From a virus (Duplodnaviria > Heunggongvirae > Uroviricota > Caudoviricetes): a stretch of DNA of 39,067 bases. This document shows positions 2,756-33,929 of this stretch, piece by piece. How positions within the stretch are numbered: position 1 is the first letter of the stretch; every line of letters begins with the position of its first letter. A program made the position numbers and the translations under genes. The stretch lies in the IMG/VR virus record IMGVR_UViG_2703718794_000007, one strand, 5' to 3'. The notes under the pieces were generated by a model, which was given only the letters and a program-made list of their open reading frames with translations, did not search any database and was not told where the DNA came from.

Positions 2756-2896
2756 TTACTGCTTACACTGTAAGAACGCCGCAAACTCCGCTCCCCAGAA
2801 ACTCATCCGTATTTCGCACAGCGAACCGTGCAACATCCAGATGATGAGGATTACCGTCACGCAGAACGTGATGGCTGTAAGCGATTTTTGCGACAT
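2756..2896 (-). CDS. Hok/Gef-family type I toxin-like small membrane protein (46 aa)
   Basis: Hand-translated ORF below the 60-aa track cutoff: MSQKSLTAITFCVTVILIIWMLHGSLCEIRMSFWGAEFAAFLQCKQ; SLCEIR and E-x-AAFL-x-CK motifs are Hok-family hallmarks; AAGGAG RBS upstream. Confidence 0.6.
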   Translation of the reverse strand: MSQKSLTAITFCVTVILIIWMLHGSLCEIRMSFWGAEFAAFLQCKQ

Positions 2897-3086
2897 AGCA
2901 CTTGCTCCTTTTCCGGAGAGGCGCTAACCTTTCACTTGCTTAGGGTAGACGGTTAGGGCCTCGGTTAAACAAAAGTGTTTTCCGGGGCCTTTCCACATCT
3001 GGCCTTCGGGTATTCCCTCCGACCATCAGCCGAAAGGCACCCGCGCGTAATCTATCGCTTTTTTGTTACTCCGGCAATTCTGCTTG

Positions 3087-3347
3087 TTAATTCTTAGGTA
3101 AAGGCAAACTCATCTGATTGTTTCCCCTGTGTGAAGCTGGTAGCTCATGCCACGGGATACCTTCTGAAGAGTGAACGCCGGAGGCGTGTTTCGATGTGAA
3201 TTTATGGAAAGCTTCCAGTGTTGAGAAGCATACGCCGCATTCCAGATTGTTACACTGGTAATACTTTTGCCGCACGGTGTTTGAATCATTTTCCGGACGA
3301 CTTGTGCGGATACGGGCAGATGCGCCACAAAGCGGACAACGGAACAT
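3087..3347 (-). CDS. ogr: Ogr/Delta-family zinc-finger late transcription activator
   Basis: 86 aa; MFRCPLCGASARIRTSR...YYQCNNLEC matches the P2 Ogr C-x2-C...C-x4-C pattern. Confidence 0.85.
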   Translation of the reverse strand: MFRCPLCGASARIRTSRPENDSNTVRQKYYQCNNLECGVCFSTLEAFHKFTSKHASGVHSSEGIPWHELPASHRGNNQMSLPLPKN

Positions 3348-3538
3348 AGCGACCTCCCTTAACGTGGTGTTGCCGCTATTCTAGATTGTACGATCCCTAA
3401 TTCCAACTAACAGCTCGCTCTGTGCGAAGAGTGAAAATTGAACTTTCAATAGTTGTTGAACTTCCATACATCCAATGTGAAAATTCATACGTTCATAATA
3501 GTTAAAATTTAAAATATTGTATATCAGGTGAATAAAGC

Positions 3539-4561
3539 ATGGGAAGAGATATAACGCTGTACCCTAAAAAAGCAACTAGAAACGAACTTAAAAATTACCT
3601 TGAAAATTTAGGTTTTAAAAGGTGTAAACATTTGTGGGAATGGCCCCAAGGAACGTTGAATTACTCTTGGTTTGATGATACGGACTTCAAATCTACAGAT
3701 GGAGTTTCGGCTGATATATATCCTGTTTCAAATGACGAACTACACATATCTGGTAATAAATGGGCATTGCATGTGCGTAATTTATATAGCGCTAGTTGGC
3801 ATGATGTAAAAATGCTTAATGATGTTCTAAAAGGCGCACGGAGTCTTTTTGGTGGAACACTTATAGGTGATTATGGGAAAAATAGGTACGCTCCTCTATG
3901 GAAGGATTCTAGTAGTCCGATCAGTCGTGGCATTTCTTCAATATTTAATCATGTCCATCATGAGATTTCCGCTGTTAAACATGCCTTACCTGAACCTTCT
4001 ATTAAATTAAACCTACCGGAAGATGGCGGCTTATTCGAATACTTTGATTACATGCAATGTATGGATCCCAGTAGAGTTATATATAATGGATTAGTACCTT
4101 TTGCGGTTGCTATGTTTGAATATTTTTTCTCTAGAGCTTTTCAAATACTTATAAAGTACGATCCTTTCGCAATAGCAAAAAGAACATCGTATAAGCAAAA
4201 AGTTGATTTTGATATTCTGCTTGAGATAGAGAAAGGAAATATTTCAATAGAAAGTGTTATTGCAAGAAATTACACTTTTCAAAACTTAACCCACCTAAAC
4301 AAAGCATATAAAGAGTGGCTGGATATAGATGTGAGAGCGATTCTTTATAAGAAAAAAAGAATTGGAAAATCAGTTGATTTTCTTGAGAATCGAATTTCTG
4401 AAATCATACAATATAGACATGGGATAGTTCATCACTTTGAGTTGGATAGGACCTTAAATCGGGATGGATATATTCATATATTAGATGCGATAGAAAAAAG
4501 CATAATTGAATTTATCCATTACATAGAAGGCAAATACAAATTTAAATTAAATGCGTATTAA
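3539..4561 (+). CDS. Hypothetical cargo protein; possible C-terminal HEPN-like Rx4H motif
   Basis: 340-aa ORF, AT-rich, opposite strand to the flanking ogr and D; C-terminal YRHGIVHH; no family recognised. Confidence 0.65.
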   Translation: MGRDITLYPKKATRNELKNYLENLGFKRCKHLWEWPQGTLNYSWFDDTDFKSTDGVSADIYPVSNDELHISGNKWALHVRNLYSASWHDVKMLNDVLKGARSLFGGTLIGDYGKNRYAPLWKDSSSPISRGISSIFNHVHHEISAVKHALPEPSIKLNLPEDGGLFEYFDYMQCMDPSRVIYNGLVPFAVAMFEYFFSRAFQILIKYDPFAIAKRTSYKQKVDFDILLEIEKGNISIESVIARNYTFQNLTHLNKAYKEWLDIDVRAILYKKKRIGKSVDFLENRISEIIQYRHGIVHHFELDRTLNRDGYIHILDAIEKSIIEFIHYIEGKYKFKLNAY

Positions 4562-4681
4562 GCAATCAACCTTACATAGGGATGACAAAGTCCGCTTCTG
4601 ACACGGAGCGGACCGTCGTTTATGTTTAATTCTATACTGTAAACTTGCCAGTTTAAGTCTGAGCTAATATGTCTAAGTTGC

Positions 4682-5791
4682 TCACTCTGTTTCTGCTATC
4701 CATTCCGGGATTTTTGCCTCAAGCTCAAGCTGTGTGGTAAAGCCGCTGTTATCAATGGTGTGCTCGGCTTTTGCAATAATCCAGTCCTGATTATCAATCT
4801 CGCTTTTAAAGCCTGTTACCGTGCCATGCATTTCGGGGTAGAGTTCTGCGCGTCCGCGTGCCAGCATGATGGAGAATGATGCGGCTCCGCGTTGTAGCTG
4901 CTGCCACTTTGCCGCCGCTGCGCGTCTTGCTGCCTGCTCGTTCTGATAAGTCTTGCGTAACACAAACACATTGCCTTCCGCGCCTTCCATATAATCACCT
5001 TCACGGCTGCTGCTTTTCTCCTTTTTGGGTTTTGGCGGTTTGCGGCGTTTCACGCTGACTTTTTTCTTTTTCCCGTAATTAAGATCAAGCCAGTAGGCGC
5101 GTACACCTGTATACGCCTCGCGGTCAGCAATGCGGAACTGATGGCGATCGCCACTGCTGCGTGTAATGGCGAACGAGGGCAACGGCTGGCCCTGTGCGTT
5201 CACGCCACCACCTGGCATGATGAATAACAGATTGCCGCTTTTTACCGTGGTGATTGCGCCCAGCATTTCCGCCATGCGCGTAAGGAAGGACATGTCGCTT
5301 TCTTCGGTCTGGTCGGCGTGGTCGATTTCGATATCCATCAGCATTTCGCTGATTTGCGGTTTCAGACCATACCGATGAGCGATGGCGGATACCACACGCT
5401 CAACGGTCACATCATGCCAGGACACTTCACGTTTAACGTTAAATTCATCCCGAAAATCTGCGCTTCTGGCTGAAACCGTCAGCCTGTCCGGCGCTCCTTC
5501 GTGAGCGATTTCATCAACAATGTAAGTGCCTTTTTCTGTCAGCGGTTCTCCTTTCCAGCCAATGAGAACCGTCAGGCGCGCGCCCCGTGGCGGTAGCTGC
5601 AACTGACCATCCGCATCATCCAGCGTGATGGTGAGCTGGTCCGCTTCAAATCCCCGGTTGTCGGTCAGTGACAGGCTCATCAGGCGCTCTGCCACGCCGG
5701 ACAGTGTTTCCCCCTCCGCGAGAATATCAAAATCCGGCATTTTCACGGGGTCTGTGCTCTGACTGAGCAATTGCATGGTGGTATCGGTCAT
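4682..5791 (-). CDS. D: Tail/late control protein D (gpD)
   Basis: ORF 4682-5923; start placed at the in-frame MTDTTMQLL methionine with a GGGAGGG RBS; gpD family by memory. Confidence 0.85.
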   Translation of the reverse strand: MTDTTMQLLSQSTDPVKMPDFDILAEGETLSGVAERLMSLSLTDNRGFEADQLTITLDDADGQLQLPPRGARLTVLIGWKGEPLTEKGTYIVDEIAHEGAPDRLTVSARSADFRDEFNVKREVSWHDVTVERVVSAIAHRYGLKPQISEMLMDIEIDHADQTEESDMSFLTRMAEMLGAITTVKSGNLLFIMPGGGVNAQGQPLPSFAITRSSGDRHQFRIADREAYTGVRAYWLDLNYGKKKKVSVKRRKPPKPKKEKSSSREGDYMEGAEGNVFVLRKTYQNEQAARRAAAAKWQQLQRGAASFSIMLARGRAELYPEMHGTVTGFKSEIDNQDWIIAKAEHTIDNSGFTTQLELEAKIPEWIAETE

Positions 5792-5948
5792 CTGTTCCCT
5801 CCCTGTGCGGCATGGTCGCATGTGCGTGCGTAGGGGGTTACTGCTTTTTGTTGTCGCCGTGGCGGGAGAACGGCGCAGGGGTGAGATTACGCGCGTGGTG
5901 GGTGATGATTGTTGCCGAATCATTTAACGGATACAAGGGGCTGAAGCT

Positions 5949-27919: not shown

Positions 27920-28438
27920 TCATTCGAAACTGGCAAGAATCTGTTCTCGAACAGAAGATTTCATCGTTAACCCACGATCTAGGAAAAATTGGAAATGCAT
28001 TAAGGCTTGTTGTTTGTGGATAAGTCTCCTGTGCACAGCCTCTTGAAGTAGCCCTCCGTGGCGGGCGGCTTTTACACCGCGTTCCGCACACGTTTTATAA
28101 ACCGCATTATCCGCCGAAAGACATGTTGCATCATGTATTCTCGCGTTAACAACGCAGCTTATGTCCGCATACTTCAATGCTCTCCTGCGATTTTTTATCT
28201 CAGCCATTTCAATAAAATGTTCAGGTTCGTAATCATTGGTGAAATTGTATGGAAGTTGCAGGCGTGTAAGCTGTTCCTGAACATCAAGATTGTATTTAGC
28301 TTTTAGTTCCTCGCAGACATAGGGGTCAATCCACACACCACCCGGGTAAATTTGCCAGATAAGATCTAAGCATTTACCTTCGTAAAAATCAGACAGTACA
28401 TTCGTATCGATAACACATCTGGGGCATTCAAACGGCAT
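27920..28438 (-). CDS. PIN-domain protein (putative toxin/nuclease)
   Basis: ORF 27920-28471; from MPFECPRCVIDTNVLSD it shows the PIN-type N-terminal Asp motif and a later HDAT acidic motif; start overlaps the upstream gene. Confidence 0.7.
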   Translation of the reverse strand: MPFECPRCVIDTNVLSDFYEGKCLDLIWQIYPGGVWIDPYVCEELKAKYNLDVQEQLTRLQLPYNFTNDYEPEHFIEMAEIKNRRRALKYADISCVVNARIHDATCLSADNAVYKTCAERGVKAARHGGLLQEAVHRRLIHKQQALMHFQFFLDRGLTMKSSVREQILASFE

Positions 28439-29573
28439 CCTCTCCGGCCTCCTGTTCGTCGTACCATTCATCCAGAAGATTGCTGAGAGCTTTTCTGTCT
28501 AATTCTAAAAGTTCAGATATGAAGGTTTCCGACGCGGAACCGGCTTCCCATGCTTTACGCGATAAGACGGTTAGGCGGCCTTTATAATTTAGTGCTTCCC
28601 TAATGGGATTTGGCTCGTGTCTCTTCCAACCTTTACGATTGGCGGTTGCCCATAGGTATCTAGTGTTTTGTTGATTAATTAAATTACATTTACTAAGACG
28701 ATCGATGATGCAAGTGGCTGATACTCTGAAAATGCTTTTTAGTCTAAGGACGGTTTCCTCATACGCCCATCCACCACCTTGCATGACGAATTGTTTTCGC
28801 AATGCGCTTTCTGGTACCAAAAAACAAGCAGCAAAGTGATTAGCAACTTTTTCTTCCGGTGAAATTGCTTTGCCATTGGTTTTATAGCTTTTAGCAGGGC
28901 CATCATACTCATCACGGTGGAAGATAAGATGAGCATATTCATGGCAAATACTGAAGATTTGACGTTCTATTGAAATGCTATCGTGAACATTTACATAAAT
29001 CGCGGTACCGTATTTGTTCGAAAACGCAGAAAATCCGAATACCATCCCTTTATCAGTTTCTTCGCGATTGAACGGGATTACTCGAATATCCGATGCTTCC
29101 AAAATGGCTACAATGTCACCAACGCAAGTAGCGTTTCCTATACCGAGACGGAAACGTTCTTCCATAGCCTTATCTTCGACTCTTCGCAAATCTTCTGCTT
29201 TGGCGGTAAAAATAGGCATTGAGTTAGGAAGATCTTCTGGCAAATTAGCATCTGCAGCTTCCTCAATTGCATTGATATTTTTTAACTTTTCAATCAACTC
29301 ATTGCGAAGTTTGGCATCCAACAAATCCGGACTATCTGCTCGCATTGCAAAACGAAACTCGCCATCATCTTGCTCATAAAAATACCCGATAGGCTTATCG
29401 AAAATCTTGCAGAGCATGATGAGTTGGGTAACGCTTGGGACGCCTAGCGCCTGCTCAAACTTACTGTAGGTTTGACGAACAACACCGATCGCATCTGCGA
29501 CGGCGCTTGCACTCATTCCTGCGTCGTTTCTGGCCTGAACCAAGCGTTCTGCTATACGCTGTTGAATGTTCAT
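28428..29573 (-). CDS. XRE-family HTH fused to an ImmA/IrrE (COG2856) zinc metallopeptidase
   Basis: 381 aa; N-terminal helix-turn-helix (MSASAVADAIGVVRQTYSKFE) and HEYAH zinc-binding motif mid-protein. Confidence 0.75.
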   Translation of the reverse strand: MNIQQRIAERLVQARNDAGMSASAVADAIGVVRQTYSKFEQALGVPSVTQLIMLCKIFDKPIGYFYEQDDGEFRFAMRADSPDLLDAKLRNELIEKLKNINAIEEAADANLPEDLPNSMPIFTAKAEDLRRVEDKAMEERFRLGIGNATCVGDIVAILEASDIRVIPFNREETDKGMVFGFSAFSNKYGTAIYVNVHDSISIERQIFSICHEYAHLIFHRDEYDGPAKSYKTNGKAISPEEKVANHFAACFLVPESALRKQFVMQGGGWAYEETVLRLKSIFRVSATCIIDRLSKCNLINQQNTRYLWATANRKGWKRHEPNPIREALNYKGRLTVLSRKAWEAGSASETFISELLELDRKALSNLLDEWYDEQEAGEDAV

Positions 29574-30070: not shown

Positions 30071-31030
30071 TTACTCCTTGTCCATTGCGTACAGCCCATT
30101 AACCAGAGCAAACTGTGGCACCCCGTCCGCGATGAAAGTCGCATTAACTCCGCAGGCTTCGCGGATAGCGGGTGCCACAATCTCCGCCCCGCCACCGACA
30201 ACCATCACCCGCCCGTAACCCGAAAAACCCGCCAGCGCGCGGATCACGCGTTGTTTCAGTGTTTCTTCCTTTTCACGAATAACCGCCATCAGGCTGGCGT
30301 AATGCGCGTCATTGTGGATGTGCTGGCGCAGCCAGGCTTCATCATGGCGATGTTCGATAATGGTATTGGCGATGTGGTGACTGGTACGCATACCGTTAGT
30401 GGCCATCACCGACAGTACGGCATCGGCCATCAGGGAAACGCCTACGTGTGGATCGCAAAACACCTGGCTGATACCTGCCAGTTGTCCCTGAACCTTTGCC
30501 ACATCCAGCGTGGTTCCGCCCAAATCCACAATCAGCAGGGATTCAAACGGACTCATGTCAGCCAGTGCTTTAAAACCAGCCGGAATGGATTCAGGCATAA
30601 CCCGTACGTTACGGATAGTGAATGCTTGTCCGTTCTGGTAGGCCACCGGGCGCATGACGTTTGCTTTTTTGCGGTTGATGTTGGCCATGTCCGGCTGTGC
30701 GTTTGTGTCGAAATATTCGCTCAGTGGCAGGGTGACAACCACATCCACCTCCTGTGGTGTGATGCCTGATTTGACCAGCGCGTGATGAATGGCAATGACA
30801 TTCACATCGCTGTACTGGTATTGCGTGTCGGTCGTCTGGACAAAGCGATCGCTGACCGGATCAAAACCATAGCGCACGCCATCAAGCATGTAGTTCGCGG
30901 GCTGCGTGCCACCGAACGGCGCAGACCATTCCGACTTGAAGCTGTTCGGGCTGATGGCGTTGCGGCGTTCGCCGTTCTCAGTCCATGCCAGCTTGATGTT
31001 GGTGGAGCCGTCATCGATACAAATTTTCAT
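30071..31030 (-). CDS. parM: ParM/StbA-like actin-fold segregation ATPase
   Basis: 319 aa; MKICIDDGSTNIKLAW, VMPESIPAG, LIVDLGGTTLD and VVGGGAEI match ParM motifs. Confidence 0.8.
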   Translation of the reverse strand: MKICIDDGSTNIKLAWTENGERRNAISPNSFKSEWSAPFGGTQPANYMLDGVRYGFDPVSDRFVQTTDTQYQYSDVNVIAIHHALVKSGITPQEVDVVVTLPLSEYFDTNAQPDMANINRKKANVMRPVAYQNGQAFTIRNVRVMPESIPAGFKALADMSPFESLLIVDLGGTTLDVAKVQGQLAGISQVFCDPHVGVSLMADAVLSVMATNGMRTSHHIANTIIEHRHDEAWLRQHIHNDAHYASLMAVIREKEETLKQRVIRALAGFSGYGRVMVVGGGAEIVAPAIREACGVNATFIADGVPQFALVNGLYAMDKE

Positions 31031-31061: not shown

Positions 31062-31170
31062 TTTACGGGATTCTGAAATCCCGTTTTTGCCTGTTTTATG
31101 CGCGCTTCATATATCGCGGCGCGTTTTTTGCTCATTTACGGGATTTGTGAATCCCGTTTCTGTCTGTTTT
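31062..31170. repeat. Two 36-bp direct repeats, each an 8-bp-stem dyad followed by a T-rich tail
   Basis: Copies at 31062-31097 and 31135-31170 (ACGGGATT-N4-AATCCCGT); copy 1 is between the A stop and parM start, copy 2 is inside the last codons of A. Confidence 0.45.
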
Positions 31171-33929
31171 TTGTTTCCACTGGTCAGGCCACCCCGCAGC
31201 AGGTCTGCTTTGCGGCGGGCGCGTTCAGTGGTTTCACTGATTCTCTGTGCGTGCTCTGCGTCGCGGATGGCGCGCAGCATGTCAGAAAGCACGGTAACGG
31301 GGGTTTTCATGGTGTTCTGGTCCTGCTGAAGTGTGGATGCCAGGCGTGCGGCGGCTTCGGGGTCTGATGCCCCCAGCTGTTCCAGATAGCTGGCGACCGG
31401 GTTATGGCGGATCTCCGTGCTGCTTACGCCGTGGTTACGGCTCAGGCGCTGCCAGAGATGCGTGATCCGGCTGTCCGGTCGGGTATCCGGTTTGCGTACA
31501 ATTTCAAATCCCTGCGGTGCAATGATGCTGCCGTCAACGTACAGACTGCCGCCCCGTAACAGGTGCTGCATCTGCTGTTCACCGATATGCAGGCCGAGAG
31601 ATTCAGCAGACTCCCGCCATTCTTTAGCGAGTAATTCGTGGTTATCAGGCAAAGGCCGCTGCTGTTTGCGGCTCTGTGTCCAGCTCTGCATTTCATCACT
31701 GCTGTTTTTTACCTGTTTGTCACGAAGCGAACGCATCAGCGCCCGGCGTTCGTGCCGTTTCAGTGAGCGCATCCATTCGTTCACTTCAACGCCGTCAGGG
31801 AGTTGCGGCCACGGTGCTGGCCGTTCTTCCGGCTGTTCTGTCCCGTTGTTGTCCGTTTCCTGTACACGGGGACAGTTATTGCCACGAGTCCAAGGGGCGG
31901 CAGGGCCGCCCTGAAGGTCAAAACCATTTTCGCGGGCGCTGTCTTCCGCTTCCGGTTTACGTCTTACCAGCTTCCAGTTATCCGGGTGCGTGCACACGCG
32001 GGAAGACTCCCCGATGAGCGGCGACCAGATCCCGTAAATCTGTACACTCTGCTCGCCGTAATCGTTCATCTCATCTGCGAGGTCGTAGGCGGTGCGAATC
32101 AGGTAGTCTTTGCGTGGAACAAGTACGCCACCCTGTTTCTCAATGTAGGTGGCAAAACATCCGGCATCAGCGGCAGCGAGTACCGCGTCCATTGCGTCAT
32201 CCTTCAGCCGTTGCGGGCCTTCCGGGTTGCGTGCCATCTGGCTGGCAAGGCGGCGCAGTTCACGCCACACCTGACGGGAGGGGATACCAAAGAACTGGAA
32301 CTGGCGGACCCGGTGAAGGCGCGCCCAGCCGATGGCGCGTTCCACGCTCTCGGCCATTGATTTTCCGGTTTCGTGGTCAACGCGTGGCTTGCCCGTTTTC
32401 GGGTCGATGCCATCCACGGCGCGGCTGTCCAGGTTCTTTCCGATGTAGGTGGCGATGTAGCTGGTTGGTGTGCCTTTTGAGCCGTCGACATACTCCACCT
32501 TAAAGCGCGGAGTAATATCATTGCCCAGCTCGTGGCGGTCTTCCTGAATGGCAATATCGCGGGTGATGGCCACGATGCTGTCGATTTCTTCCGGATGAGC
32601 AAAGACCATCATGTGCCAGTGCACGGTGCCGTCATGGTGAGGCTCCACCGTGCGGATGCCATACCAGCGCAGGCCGTCGCGGTTCAGTTTTTTGCGGACC
32701 GCCGCAAAAAACGTGTTAACCAGGTAATCGCTGGAGTCGCGCATGGTGGCCCCGTTCCATTTGGGGTTCGGATGACCGTTCTCCGTTGTTGCGTGGTATT
32801 TTGACGGGCAGGTGACAGTCAGAAACACCGCTCTGTCGCCACGGGCTTCGGCCAGAAGTTCCAGTCCCTTCATGGTGGCCATCATTTCTGCCTTACGGTG
32901 AACCGGGTTACTTACTCCCGCGTAATACACCGTCTCGAGATCAATCGTGAACCCGTCTTCATTTTCCAGCATGAAACTTTTCAGGAAATCGCGTGTTTTC
33001 TCGCGCTGTGCGCGAAACTCGCTTAACGCGTCCTGGCTCAGATAGGGCGATGTTTTTCTGGAAACCAGACAGGCGGCGCGGAGTTGTTCTTCTCTCCACT
33101 CGCAACGTACCAGCCACAATTTGCGTTTCCACCATTCCGCACAGGTCAGGCGAAGGATTGCGCCCGGCAGCAGCTCCGTGTCCGGTTCGTTCCTCCGGTC
33201 TTTGTCTGTTGTCAGTGCGTCATAATGTGGAGGCATGGCGTGCAGGTGTAACGCCATGCGGGCCAGCATCTGATACGCCTTCAGCGTTACATCCATGGTC
33301 AGTTCACCATCAGTCGCGCCAAAGCCATCGCAGAGTTTTTCGAAGGTGCTGCTGAACATCGCCGCCGTCATGGTGGCCAGCGTCTGTATCTGGTGTTTGT
33401 TGAGCTGCGGCAGGTAAAGCAAATCGTCCAGGCGTTCGCGTCCGGCAAGGGAGCGATAACCCGGTGTCAGCCAGCGTCCGTCAGTGCGATCCAGACGTTC
33501 GAATATTTTGCGCAGGGTTCCGCGTGCATAGCGTTCCGCCTGCCAGCTCTTTTTGCCTTTCCGGCGATCGGCTTCCTGTTTTTTGCGCAGGAAGGAGAGG
33601 TGGCGAATAAGCGGATCGCGCAGATAGGACGGCAGCAGGCGCAGCGAGGCCATGGCTTCATCCACCGCGCCGCGTGCCTGTTTTCTGGCGTCTCCTGCCA
33701 GTGTGATGGTTTTGTCCTGTTTTTCCTGTGCGTCCAGGCTTTTATTAATCAGGCCGCCCAGCGGCGTGGCGGAGAACGCCGCATCAGCCATTTCCTGGCG
33801 GCGCTCGTTCTCTGCCCGGTAGGCATCCAGCCAGGAGGAAAGCGCGGATTCAGGAGCGGGGATCCCCGTTCCTTCACGCCCCACTGCGTGGCGCGGTTGT
33901 TGCCAGTCCCTGATGTACTCTGCCGTCAT
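31107..33929 (-). CDS. A: Replication initiator A (rolling-circle HUH endonuclease)
   Basis: 940 aa; HWHMMVF and YIATYIGK motifs typical of the P2 gpA family. Confidence 0.8.
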   Translation of the reverse strand: MTAEYIRDWQQPRHAVGREGTGIPAPESALSSWLDAYRAENERRQEMADAAFSATPLGGLINKSLDAQEKQDKTITLAGDARKQARGAVDEAMASLRLLPSYLRDPLIRHLSFLRKKQEADRRKGKKSWQAERYARGTLRKIFERLDRTDGRWLTPGYRSLAGRERLDDLLYLPQLNKHQIQTLATMTAAMFSSTFEKLCDGFGATDGELTMDVTLKAYQMLARMALHLHAMPPHYDALTTDKDRRNEPDTELLPGAILRLTCAEWWKRKLWLVRCEWREEQLRAACLVSRKTSPYLSQDALSEFRAQREKTRDFLKSFMLENEDGFTIDLETVYYAGVSNPVHRKAEMMATMKGLELLAEARGDRAVFLTVTCPSKYHATTENGHPNPKWNGATMRDSSDYLVNTFFAAVRKKLNRDGLRWYGIRTVEPHHDGTVHWHMMVFAHPEEIDSIVAITRDIAIQEDRHELGNDITPRFKVEYVDGSKGTPTSYIATYIGKNLDSRAVDGIDPKTGKPRVDHETGKSMAESVERAIGWARLHRVRQFQFFGIPSRQVWRELRRLASQMARNPEGPQRLKDDAMDAVLAAADAGCFATYIEKQGGVLVPRKDYLIRTAYDLADEMNDYGEQSVQIYGIWSPLIGESSRVCTHPDNWKLVRRKPEAEDSARENGFDLQGGPAAPWTRGNNCPRVQETDNNGTEQPEERPAPWPQLPDGVEVNEWMRSLKRHERRALMRSLRDKQVKNSSDEMQSWTQSRKQQRPLPDNHELLAKEWRESAESLGLHIGEQQMQHLLRGGSLYVDGSIIAPQGFEIVRKPDTRPDSRITHLWQRLSRNHGVSSTEIRHNPVASYLEQLGASDPEAAARLASTLQQDQNTMKTPVTVLSDMLRAIRDAEHAQRISETTERARRKADLLRGGLTSGNKKQTETGFTNPVNEQKTRRDI

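Follow-up and report, generated by a model that had tools for sequence, protein, structure and literature searches.

A candidate single-protein HEPN defence gene at the D-ogr junction of a P88-like Escherichia coli prophage

INTRODUCTION

HEPN tRNases that act as a single protein, or that are carried by prophages, include HepS (PMC13043305), ApeA (10.64898/2026.01.26.701840), DARNA, also named PD-T7-3 (10.64898/2026.02.22.705581), and PD-T4-2. HepS is triggered by a tail-tip protein of siphoviruses (PMC13043305). A review equates the Pfam family PF18735 with the HEPN domain of PD-T4-2, PD-T4-5, PD-T7-3 and ApeA. In the available portion of the DefensePredictor supplements PD-T4-2_B is labelled RiboL-PSP-HEPN, and the accessible portion of the same work reports a tested two-gene HEPN+GNAT candidate (WP_014639476.1 + WP_000354965.1) whose HEPN protein resembles PD-T4-2_B. 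The Ribo L-PSP-HEPN family is itself distantly related to AbiF/AbiD (Anantharaman et al.). Catalytic HEPN domains have three hallmarks: an R-x4-6-H motif, a polar residue (N, D or H) after the arginine, and an upstream acidic residue, typically within E-x3-[KR] (PMC3710099).

Phages of the P2 family carry cargo genes in hotspots. The portions of three papers available to us (PMC9122126, PMC9519451, PMC13586616) name the gpA-portal, downstream-of-gpL, integrase-att and integrase-primase sites; they do not list D-ogr. Here, we analyse a 39,067-nucleotide stretch of tailed-phage DNA (IMG/VR record IMGVR_UViG_2703718794_000007; 'the window') in which the D-ogr junction is occupied by a single gene. 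An initial annotation, made from the letters of the window, had picked out this gene as an AT-rich insertion and had tentatively connected its product to HEPN ribonucleases.

RESULTS

A single-gene insertion in a P88-like prophage

According to the ORF listing of the window, the gene is an ATG-start ORF of 340 amino acids at positions 3539 to 4561 on the + strand; it encodes a two-domain candidate defence protein (a WP_000532200-type 'hypothetical protein' in RefSeq). It was described as lying between ogr and D on the opposite strand, and it does: both neighbours are on the − strand. The left border is ogr, the late transcription activator (3087 to 3347; 86 aa; Pfam Ogr_Delta, E = 5.1e-14), and the right border is gene D, the tail/baseplate hub (4682 to 5923; 413-aa ORF; Pfam Phage_GPD, E = 2.4e-17, and the P88 annotation), where the coordinates of D are those of the maximal ORF and its true start may be further in. 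For D, several RefSeq genomes (loci L090 and L091) have a shortened 'VgrG/Pvc8 family' coding sequence with a pseudogene fragment after it; the window has a single intact ORF. This looks like an annotation or start-site inconsistency within the P88-like prophage group.

Homology to phage P88 (blastn) breaks off at position 3383 and starts again at 4668. The intervening segment (3384 to 4667; 1284 bp; 34.2% GC) has no counterpart in P88, and the P88 alignment places a short string, TCTA(A/G), at both of its edges. The lower GC content first noted for the ORF region is evident across positions 3450 to 4650, at 0.31–0.38 versus 0.48–0.56 on the flanks. The segment as a whole has a GC content of 0.342, and the 340-aa ORF has 26% GC at third codon positions, versus an overall GC content of 0.530 for the rest of the prophage. 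The segment is a single-gene insertion, foreign to a P88-type genome.

The closest matches of the ogr-D region in a phage collection are Xuanwuvirus and P88-like Peduoviridae, and the host element is a P88-like prophage of E. coli (Xuanwuvirus, Peduoviridae), not P2 itself. The statement that ogr and D are otherwise adjacent holds, with a gap of 45 bp in 35 of 79 related contigs; 'P2' as a label for the element is more precisely 'P88-like'. Five phages (P88, Shae_phiSM, PhiR44_2, P884B11 and Chuche) match the region in two pieces, ogr and D, with nothing between; phage 500465-2 has the same insert at its D-ogr junction, and phage 520873 has a different ORF there, of 132 aa. Across 5426 complete E. 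coli genomes, the ogr-D region is matched in 1500 and the whole 3-kb stretch in 65. The 1284-bp insert occurs in exactly those 65, always as a single chromosomal copy at the D-ogr junction, never on a plasmid, and its copies are 98–99.9% identical. Phage 500465-2 is the only phage record to carry it. The single-gene insertion proposed from the letters of the window is thereby borne out by genomes with and without the insert. As P88 does without the gene, the phage can dispense with it.

The ORF is not a chance reading frame, because 295 proteins match it at E ≤ 1e-3 in a word-indexed search of a 90%-clustered database, and 282 cluster representatives match the protein at the same threshold in an exhaustive search.

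A Shine-Dalgarno sequence, AGGTG, can be read at 3526 to 3530 (+), 8 nt 5′ of the ATG, and the AT-rich upstream region that had been ascribed to the ORF is indeed present, extending over 155 bp. A consensus scan of these 155 bp found no strong sigma-70 promoter on the + strand, which is a point against a role in defence. Directly 3′ of the stop codon, between the convergent HEPN gene and D, there is a terminator-like hairpin with a T-rich tail (4590 to 4613 or 4623, +; nine pairs, six of them G-C). The gene is transcribed opposite to the late genes; this orientation, together with its own terminator, fits expression in the lysogen.

The C-terminal half is a predicted HEPN ribonuclease

The string YRHGIVHH, which had suggested an R-x4-H motif, comprises residues 292–299 of the protein. 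The predicted catalytic motif, R293-H294-G-I-V-H298, is encoded at 4415 to 4432 (+), with the codon of R293 at 4415–4417 and that of H298 at 4430–4432. It lies within a RiboL-PSP-like HEPN domain of about residues 178–333 (4070 to 4537, +). The protein's sole Pfam match is to PF18735 (HEPN_RiboL-PSP), where residues 181–329 align to positions 29–189 of the 191-position profile (E = 1.6e-4); the score, 22.1 bits, is under the 28.4-bit gathering threshold. Searched individually, 55 of 86 relatives match PF18735 at E ≤ 1e-3, the best at 4.3e-10, and many close homologs bear a precomputed PF18735 label.

In an alignment of 86 sequences, the R-x4-H spacing is exact throughout, down to about 20% identity. 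Four columns are invariant (E194, F247, R293 and H298) and nine more are at least 90% conserved (N183, Q248, H294, G55, D89, N94, G105, G106 and G113). The residue after the arginine, at position 294, is histidine in 81 sequences and asparagine in five. The invariant upstream acidic residue of the predicted active site is E194 (codon at 4118 to 4120, +; 86/86); E-x3-[KR] is found in 53 of the 86, and the window protein has E-x4-R, its basic residue one position off.

The family thus has the features of a catalytic HEPN domain: a helical-bundle fold in the AlphaFold2 model, the R-x4-6-H motif, a polar residue after the arginine and an upstream acidic residue. With a sub-threshold match that spans nearly all of PF18735, both the motif and E194 invariant in the whole alignment, and a confident model, the HEPN assignment, at first tentative, has gained in strength. 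We looked for homology to a housekeeping or structural protein, and for the lack of an HEPN fold, and found neither. Foldseek comparisons of the predicted structure with the PDB and BFVD gave nothing at E ≤ 1e-3, which, like the sub-threshold Pfam score, counts against the overall reading proposed below, and searches of PDB sequences with the protein and the family profile gave nothing relevant; the assignment is therefore well supported but remote. Overall, the C-terminal half is very probably a catalytically competent HEPN RNase, as predicted from these features. Membership in the Ribo L-PSP-HEPN family in its 2013 sense, by L-PSP fusion or ParB operon, was considered and set aside, as there is no L-PSP domain and no conserved neighbour; such a fusion or operon is the family's typical association, not a strict requirement.

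An N-terminal alpha/beta domain precedes the HEPN domain

AlphaFold2, run on the 86-sequence alignment, produced a model with a pLDDT of 94.9 and a pTM of 0.88. Residues 1 to about 125 (3539 to 3913, +) form an alpha/beta domain, proposed to be a sensor or regulatory module, with strands at residues 2–8, 40–44, 56–62, 75–82 and 107–110 and three helices. A connector follows (3917 to 4060, +), made of a long helix (residues 127–149), a linker and a short helix (166–174); the linker is modelled less confidently, with a pLDDT of 81–87 for residues 150–170. Residues 178–333 are mainly helical, with one short beta-hairpin at 272–281.

The conserved residues of the N-terminal domain are G55, S86, D89, N94, F104-G105-G106, D111, G113 and N115-R116-Y117. 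Judged by sequence conservation, the polar and glycine-containing set from S86 onwards (S86, D89, N94, FGG, D111, G113 and NRY) suggests a binding pocket. The top Foldseek matches (the spermine synthase N-domain, the BamC N-domain and a phage AdoMetDC-family protein) are weak and uninformative for this domain. An MNT-type nucleotidyltransferase was rejected as its identity: only G55 and S52 are conserved at the relevant place, and the hG[GS]...D-x-D pattern is absent.

The gene is solitary and mobile

The best 120 of the 295 relatives are 64–99% identical to the window protein, are about 340 aa long, and come from Pantoea, Proteus, Shewanella, Aeromonas, Pseudomonas, Halochromatium and Methylococcaceae. 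In the exhaustive search, full-length coverage of both domains is kept down to about 21–25% identity. Species-representative genomes were scanned with the closer alignment A2 as query, since the diverse alignment A1 is too divergent. The scan returned 36 loci in Gamma- and Betaproteobacteria, Desulfobacterota, Bacteroidota, Acidobacteriota, Cyanobacteria, Actinomycetota, Spirochaetia, Patescibacteria/Saccharibacteria and other taxa, often with 57–73% identity across phyla.

No protein family within 3 kb of the gene is common to more than three of 42 loci. Six neighbour families reach three loci, and five of these are confined to three syntenic Saccharibacteria contigs. Contexts at nine loci include small islets in Shewanella, Aeromonas, Halochromatium and an uncultured 3.9-Mb genome. 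The Pantoea homolog is in a lambdoid prophage, adjoining a SIR2_2 gene; the Pseudomonas homolog is in an integrase/AlpA/DUF927 (P4-like) element, adjoining a UvrD-helicase pair; one homolog shares an island next to smpB with AbiTii, a type I R-M system and a pair of integrases; and one metagenomic homolog has only neighbours without an assigned function. Several homologs occupy small islets amid housekeeping genes with no defence gene nearby, which counts against a defence reading. DNA similarity between genera is limited to the ORF, and in each of eight genomes compared the gene has a lower GC content than the DNA around it (0.34–0.48 versus 0.42–0.65). The HEPN gene is solitary and mobile.

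Several companions were sought and ruled out. There is no partner gene, as the 42 loci lack a conserved neighbour, and no HEPN-MNT (HepT/MntA) pair, as the 1284-bp insert has no second ORF either. An RNA antitoxin of the ToxI or AbiF type was not found: the insert has no Rfam match and no tandem repeat, and the flanks are not conserved between genera.

Some copies look incomplete. Four distant loci (L122, L126, L130 and L132) match the first 138–263 residues only, and an IMG/VR contig (L059) has a spacer shortened by 1 bp and a protein match that stops at residue 282. These apparently truncated or frameshifted copies point to occasional decay. A 4.2-kb contig (L097; DEQA01000038.1) of a metagenome-assembled genome labelled Planococcaceae (Firmicutes) encodes a protein 100% identical to that of E. 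coli; this probably reflects an artefact of binning or contamination, not a real transfer.

The D-ogr junction is a variable cargo hotspot

We surveyed the junction in 80 IMG/VR contigs with a near-identical Ogr, the best 80 of 211 matches, so that the proportions are indicative only; the spacer was measured in the 79 contigs holding both genes. It is empty, at 45 bp, in 35 contigs and occupied in the other 44, by inserts of 257–3526 bp that fall into 16 sequence classes. All classes are AT-rich (GC 0.33–0.42) save one of 257 bp, and the HEPN gene is one of the 16, found in five of the 79 contigs. Each class meets the ogr leader at its own point, 17–42 nt upstream of the ogr start, which suggests independent acquisitions.

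The cargo includes a PifA-like KAP NTPase (PADLOC PifA, E = 2.6e-64), a GmrSD_N+HNH enzyme, a PDC-S31/DUF2971 protein, PIN_12 and PIN_4 proteins, a SEC-C protein, a PRTase-like pair, an alpha/beta hydrolase and a HetE-N protein with a 932-aa partner; several cargo proteins have no database match. The D-ogr junction is a variable cargo hotspot in P88-like phages. It has the properties of a site for hotspot cargo, or morons: core genes flank it, it is empty or holds unrelated genes, and some of these are known defence genes. As an argument for a defence role of the HEPN gene, this association is only suggestive, and about half of the other cargo classes likewise lack an assigned function.

Six spacers (L015, L053, L079, L084, L039 and L081) hold cargo without a PADLOC match and, except for HetE-N, without a Pfam match: a 229-aa membrane protein, proteins of 386 and 478 aa, the 932-aa protein with its HetE-N partner, a 274-aa protein and a 188/134-aa pair. 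These are candidates for new defence genes. The 478-aa (L079) and 386-aa (L053) proteins contain R-x5/6-H-like strings, yet hhalign finds no relation to the HEPN family.

Other features of the window

At the classic P2 gpA-portal hotspot, the window has a RosmerTA-like pair (27923–29573, −), in which a 381-aa HTH and Peptidase_M78 protein (PADLOC RmrA, E = 2.8e-35) overlaps a 183-aa PIN-domain protein (27923–28471); the prophage thus has a second defence-type cargo. A ParM/StbA actin-like segregation protein (30074–31030, −; Pfam StbA_N, E = 6e-82) adjoins the gpA replication gene (31110–33929). Integrating phages of the P2 family do not usually have such a protein, whose presence hints that plasmid-like maintenance is an option.

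Directly beyond ogr there is a hok/sok killer module (2756–3042, −), with a sok RNA (RF01794) at 2883–3042, scored at 51.9 bits against a gathering score of 59 (E = 3.9e-10), and a Hok/Gef gene at about 2756–2896, as annotated by RefSeq at identical loci. An AT-rich gene pair (1264–2494, −; GC 0.31–0.38) separates flk from the end of the prophage; it encodes a 297-aa VasI/TagO-like protein with three Cys-containing N-terminal repeats (Pfam VasI, E = 2.6e-25) and a 110-aa zinc-ribbon membrane protein (phrog_6586, E = 7e-43). Homology to P88 ends near 2685, which puts both genes beyond the P88-type genome; of the 23 related contigs that extend far enough, 12 have the pair.

DISCUSSION

From its genomic context, we estimate a probability of about 0.6 that the 340-aa gene is an anti-phage, abortive-infection gene. 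According to this proposal, segment 3384–4667 would be a horizontally acquired moron that encodes a self-contained, single-protein abortive-infection or phage-exclusion factor. Its HEPN domain would be a metal-independent RNase with R293 and H298 as catalytic residues, aided by H294 and E194, and the protein would probably be a dimer or a higher oligomer, as other HEPN enzymes are. The N-terminal alpha/beta domain would hold the RNase inactive until it receives an infection cue from another phage. The activated RNase would then cleave RNA of the host, with tRNA anticodon loops or mRNA as the most plausible targets; translation would halt, the infecting phage could not multiply, and the lysogen population, and hence the prophage, would be protected. 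The sensor role of the N-terminal domain and the tRNA target are suggested by analogy with HepS, ApeA and DARNA.

A self-restrained HEPN RNase could instead be a selfish toxin or addiction module that penalizes the cell when the prophage or island decays or is lost, and that does not sense a foreign phage. Against this, the 42 loci show no partner gene, nor is there conserved flanking non-coding DNA, a tandem repeat or an Rfam match that could supply an RNA antitoxin; a single polypeptide also has no obvious mechanism of differential stability. Many validated defence proteins are just as toxin-like. We consider an addiction module improbable. The position of the gene beside the late activator ogr raises a further alternative, in which the protein serves the phage itself, either through counter-defence, by degrading host RNA or cyclic-oligonucleotide signals, or through RNA processing that tunes late expression. 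Some HEPN proteins do degrade cyclic oligoadenylate signals (10.64898/2026.02.22.705581). However, P88 and 74 of the 79 related contigs lack the gene, so the phage does not need it; homologs are also found outside phages, in chromosomal islets and a defence island; and transcription runs opposite to the late genes. A phage-serving function is about as improbable as addiction.

The protein might also have no part in conflict, being either a non-catalytic, HEPN-like binding or scaffold protein or an enzyme of host RNA metabolism. In many fusions with nucleotidyltransferases the HEPN domain is non-catalytic (PMC3710099), and some homologs sit amid housekeeping genes. Against a loss of catalysis, all 86 sequences keep the R, H and E, unlike inactive HEPN families; against housekeeping, the gene has a patchy distribution (1.2% of E. 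coli genomes), has been transferred across phyla and has an atypical GC content in every host. We regard this explanation as very improbable, the least likely of those considered here. The abortive-infection reading is the one that we carry forward.

If that reading is confirmed, a compact (340 aa), widely transferred sensor-plus-RNase immunity protein, with a previously unstudied sensor domain, would be added to the HEPN anticodon-nuclease defences, and the D-ogr junction, in a prophage type that about 28% of complete E. coli genomes carry, would become a practical search site for defence genes. A broader combination is possible but rather doubtful: the family would be an unrecognized, phylum-spanning, single-chain immune RNase whose N-terminal domain senses a universal non-protein cue (a small molecule or nucleic-acid form) rather than a particular phage protein, and D-ogr would be a third major P2-family defence hotspot with about eight unassigned cargo classes. 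A universal cue of this kind would explain the 57–73% identity across phyla. No current view is overturned, because prophage hotspots with HEPN cargo are expected. Although of an ordinary kind, the gene is a clean candidate that can be tested, and the analysis has the hotspot itself as a useful by-product.

We now compare the locus with described systems. The check for a known defence system was negative: in PADLOC v2.0.0 no model matches the window protein (E ≤ 1) or its 85 aligned relatives, and none of the HEPN-system models (ApeA, PD-T7-3, PD-T4-2, PD-T4-5, AbiD/F) matches any of the 86 family members at E ≤ 0.01; this counts against the abortive-infection reading. The protein has no usable match in NCBIfam or PHROGs, and RefSeq names it only 'hypothetical protein' (WP_000532200.1). 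A literature search by family accessions returned no mention and no paper testing the 340-aa protein; within the available part of the DefensePredictor candidate supplements, neither its accession nor the motif string was found.

As a slot between core genes that holds interchangeable, AT-rich and mostly defence-type cargo, the D-ogr junction resembles the P2 hotspots old/tin (gpA-portal) and fun/Z (downstream of gpL) as they are described in the portions of the literature available; it is seen here in the P88-like (Xuanwuvirus) branch.

Among the proteins, PD-T4-2 (Vassallo et al. 2022) and the HEPN+GNAT system are, in the accessible parts of their sources, E. coli systems with validated anti-phage activity, and their HEPN component is labelled as of the RiboL-PSP-HEPN type. 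When the family profile is compared with WP_014639476.1 by hhalign, 171 columns align colinearly, and E194 and R-x4-H fall on that protein's E and RNHLVH; the alignment has a non-significant probability of 0.4% (E = 0.13). Both systems require a second gene, whereas the 340-aa gene is solitary and has a different N-terminal domain. AbiD/AbiF (Abi_2) and PD-T4-5 are the classical single-gene HEPN abortive-infection proteins; the 340-aa protein has no Pfam match to Abi_2 at E ≤ 1 and no PADLOC match to PD-T4-5, and AbiF works with an RNA antitoxin, for which no candidate was found at this gene. HepS, from the Salmonella prophage Gifsy-1 (PMC13043305), has one HEPN domain in a 218-residue chain, has no extra N-terminal alpha/beta domain, and shares no sequence similarity with the family in a profile search of PDB sequences.

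ApeA and DARNA (PD-T7-3) are single-protein HEPN anticodon nucleases that have a separate ligand- or nucleic-acid-sensing part and are active as oligomers. The PADLOC models of ApeA and PD-T7-3 do not match the 340-aa family, and a relationship to DARNA is ruled out on architecture: DARNA, at 456 aa, has an N-terminal HEPN domain and a 300-aa helical C-terminal domain, whereas the 340-aa protein has the reversed order and a small alpha/beta domain. We do not assign the protein to any named system, because PADLOC, NCBIfam and PHROGs give no match, the architectures of DARNA and HepS differ and the hhalign comparison is non-significant. By analogy, ApeA and DARNA would offer the best functional parallel for an architecture of a sensor domain joined to HEPN, and the 340-aa protein is most likely a new, candidate member of the HEPN-based, prophage-borne abortive-infection proteins, outside every named system.
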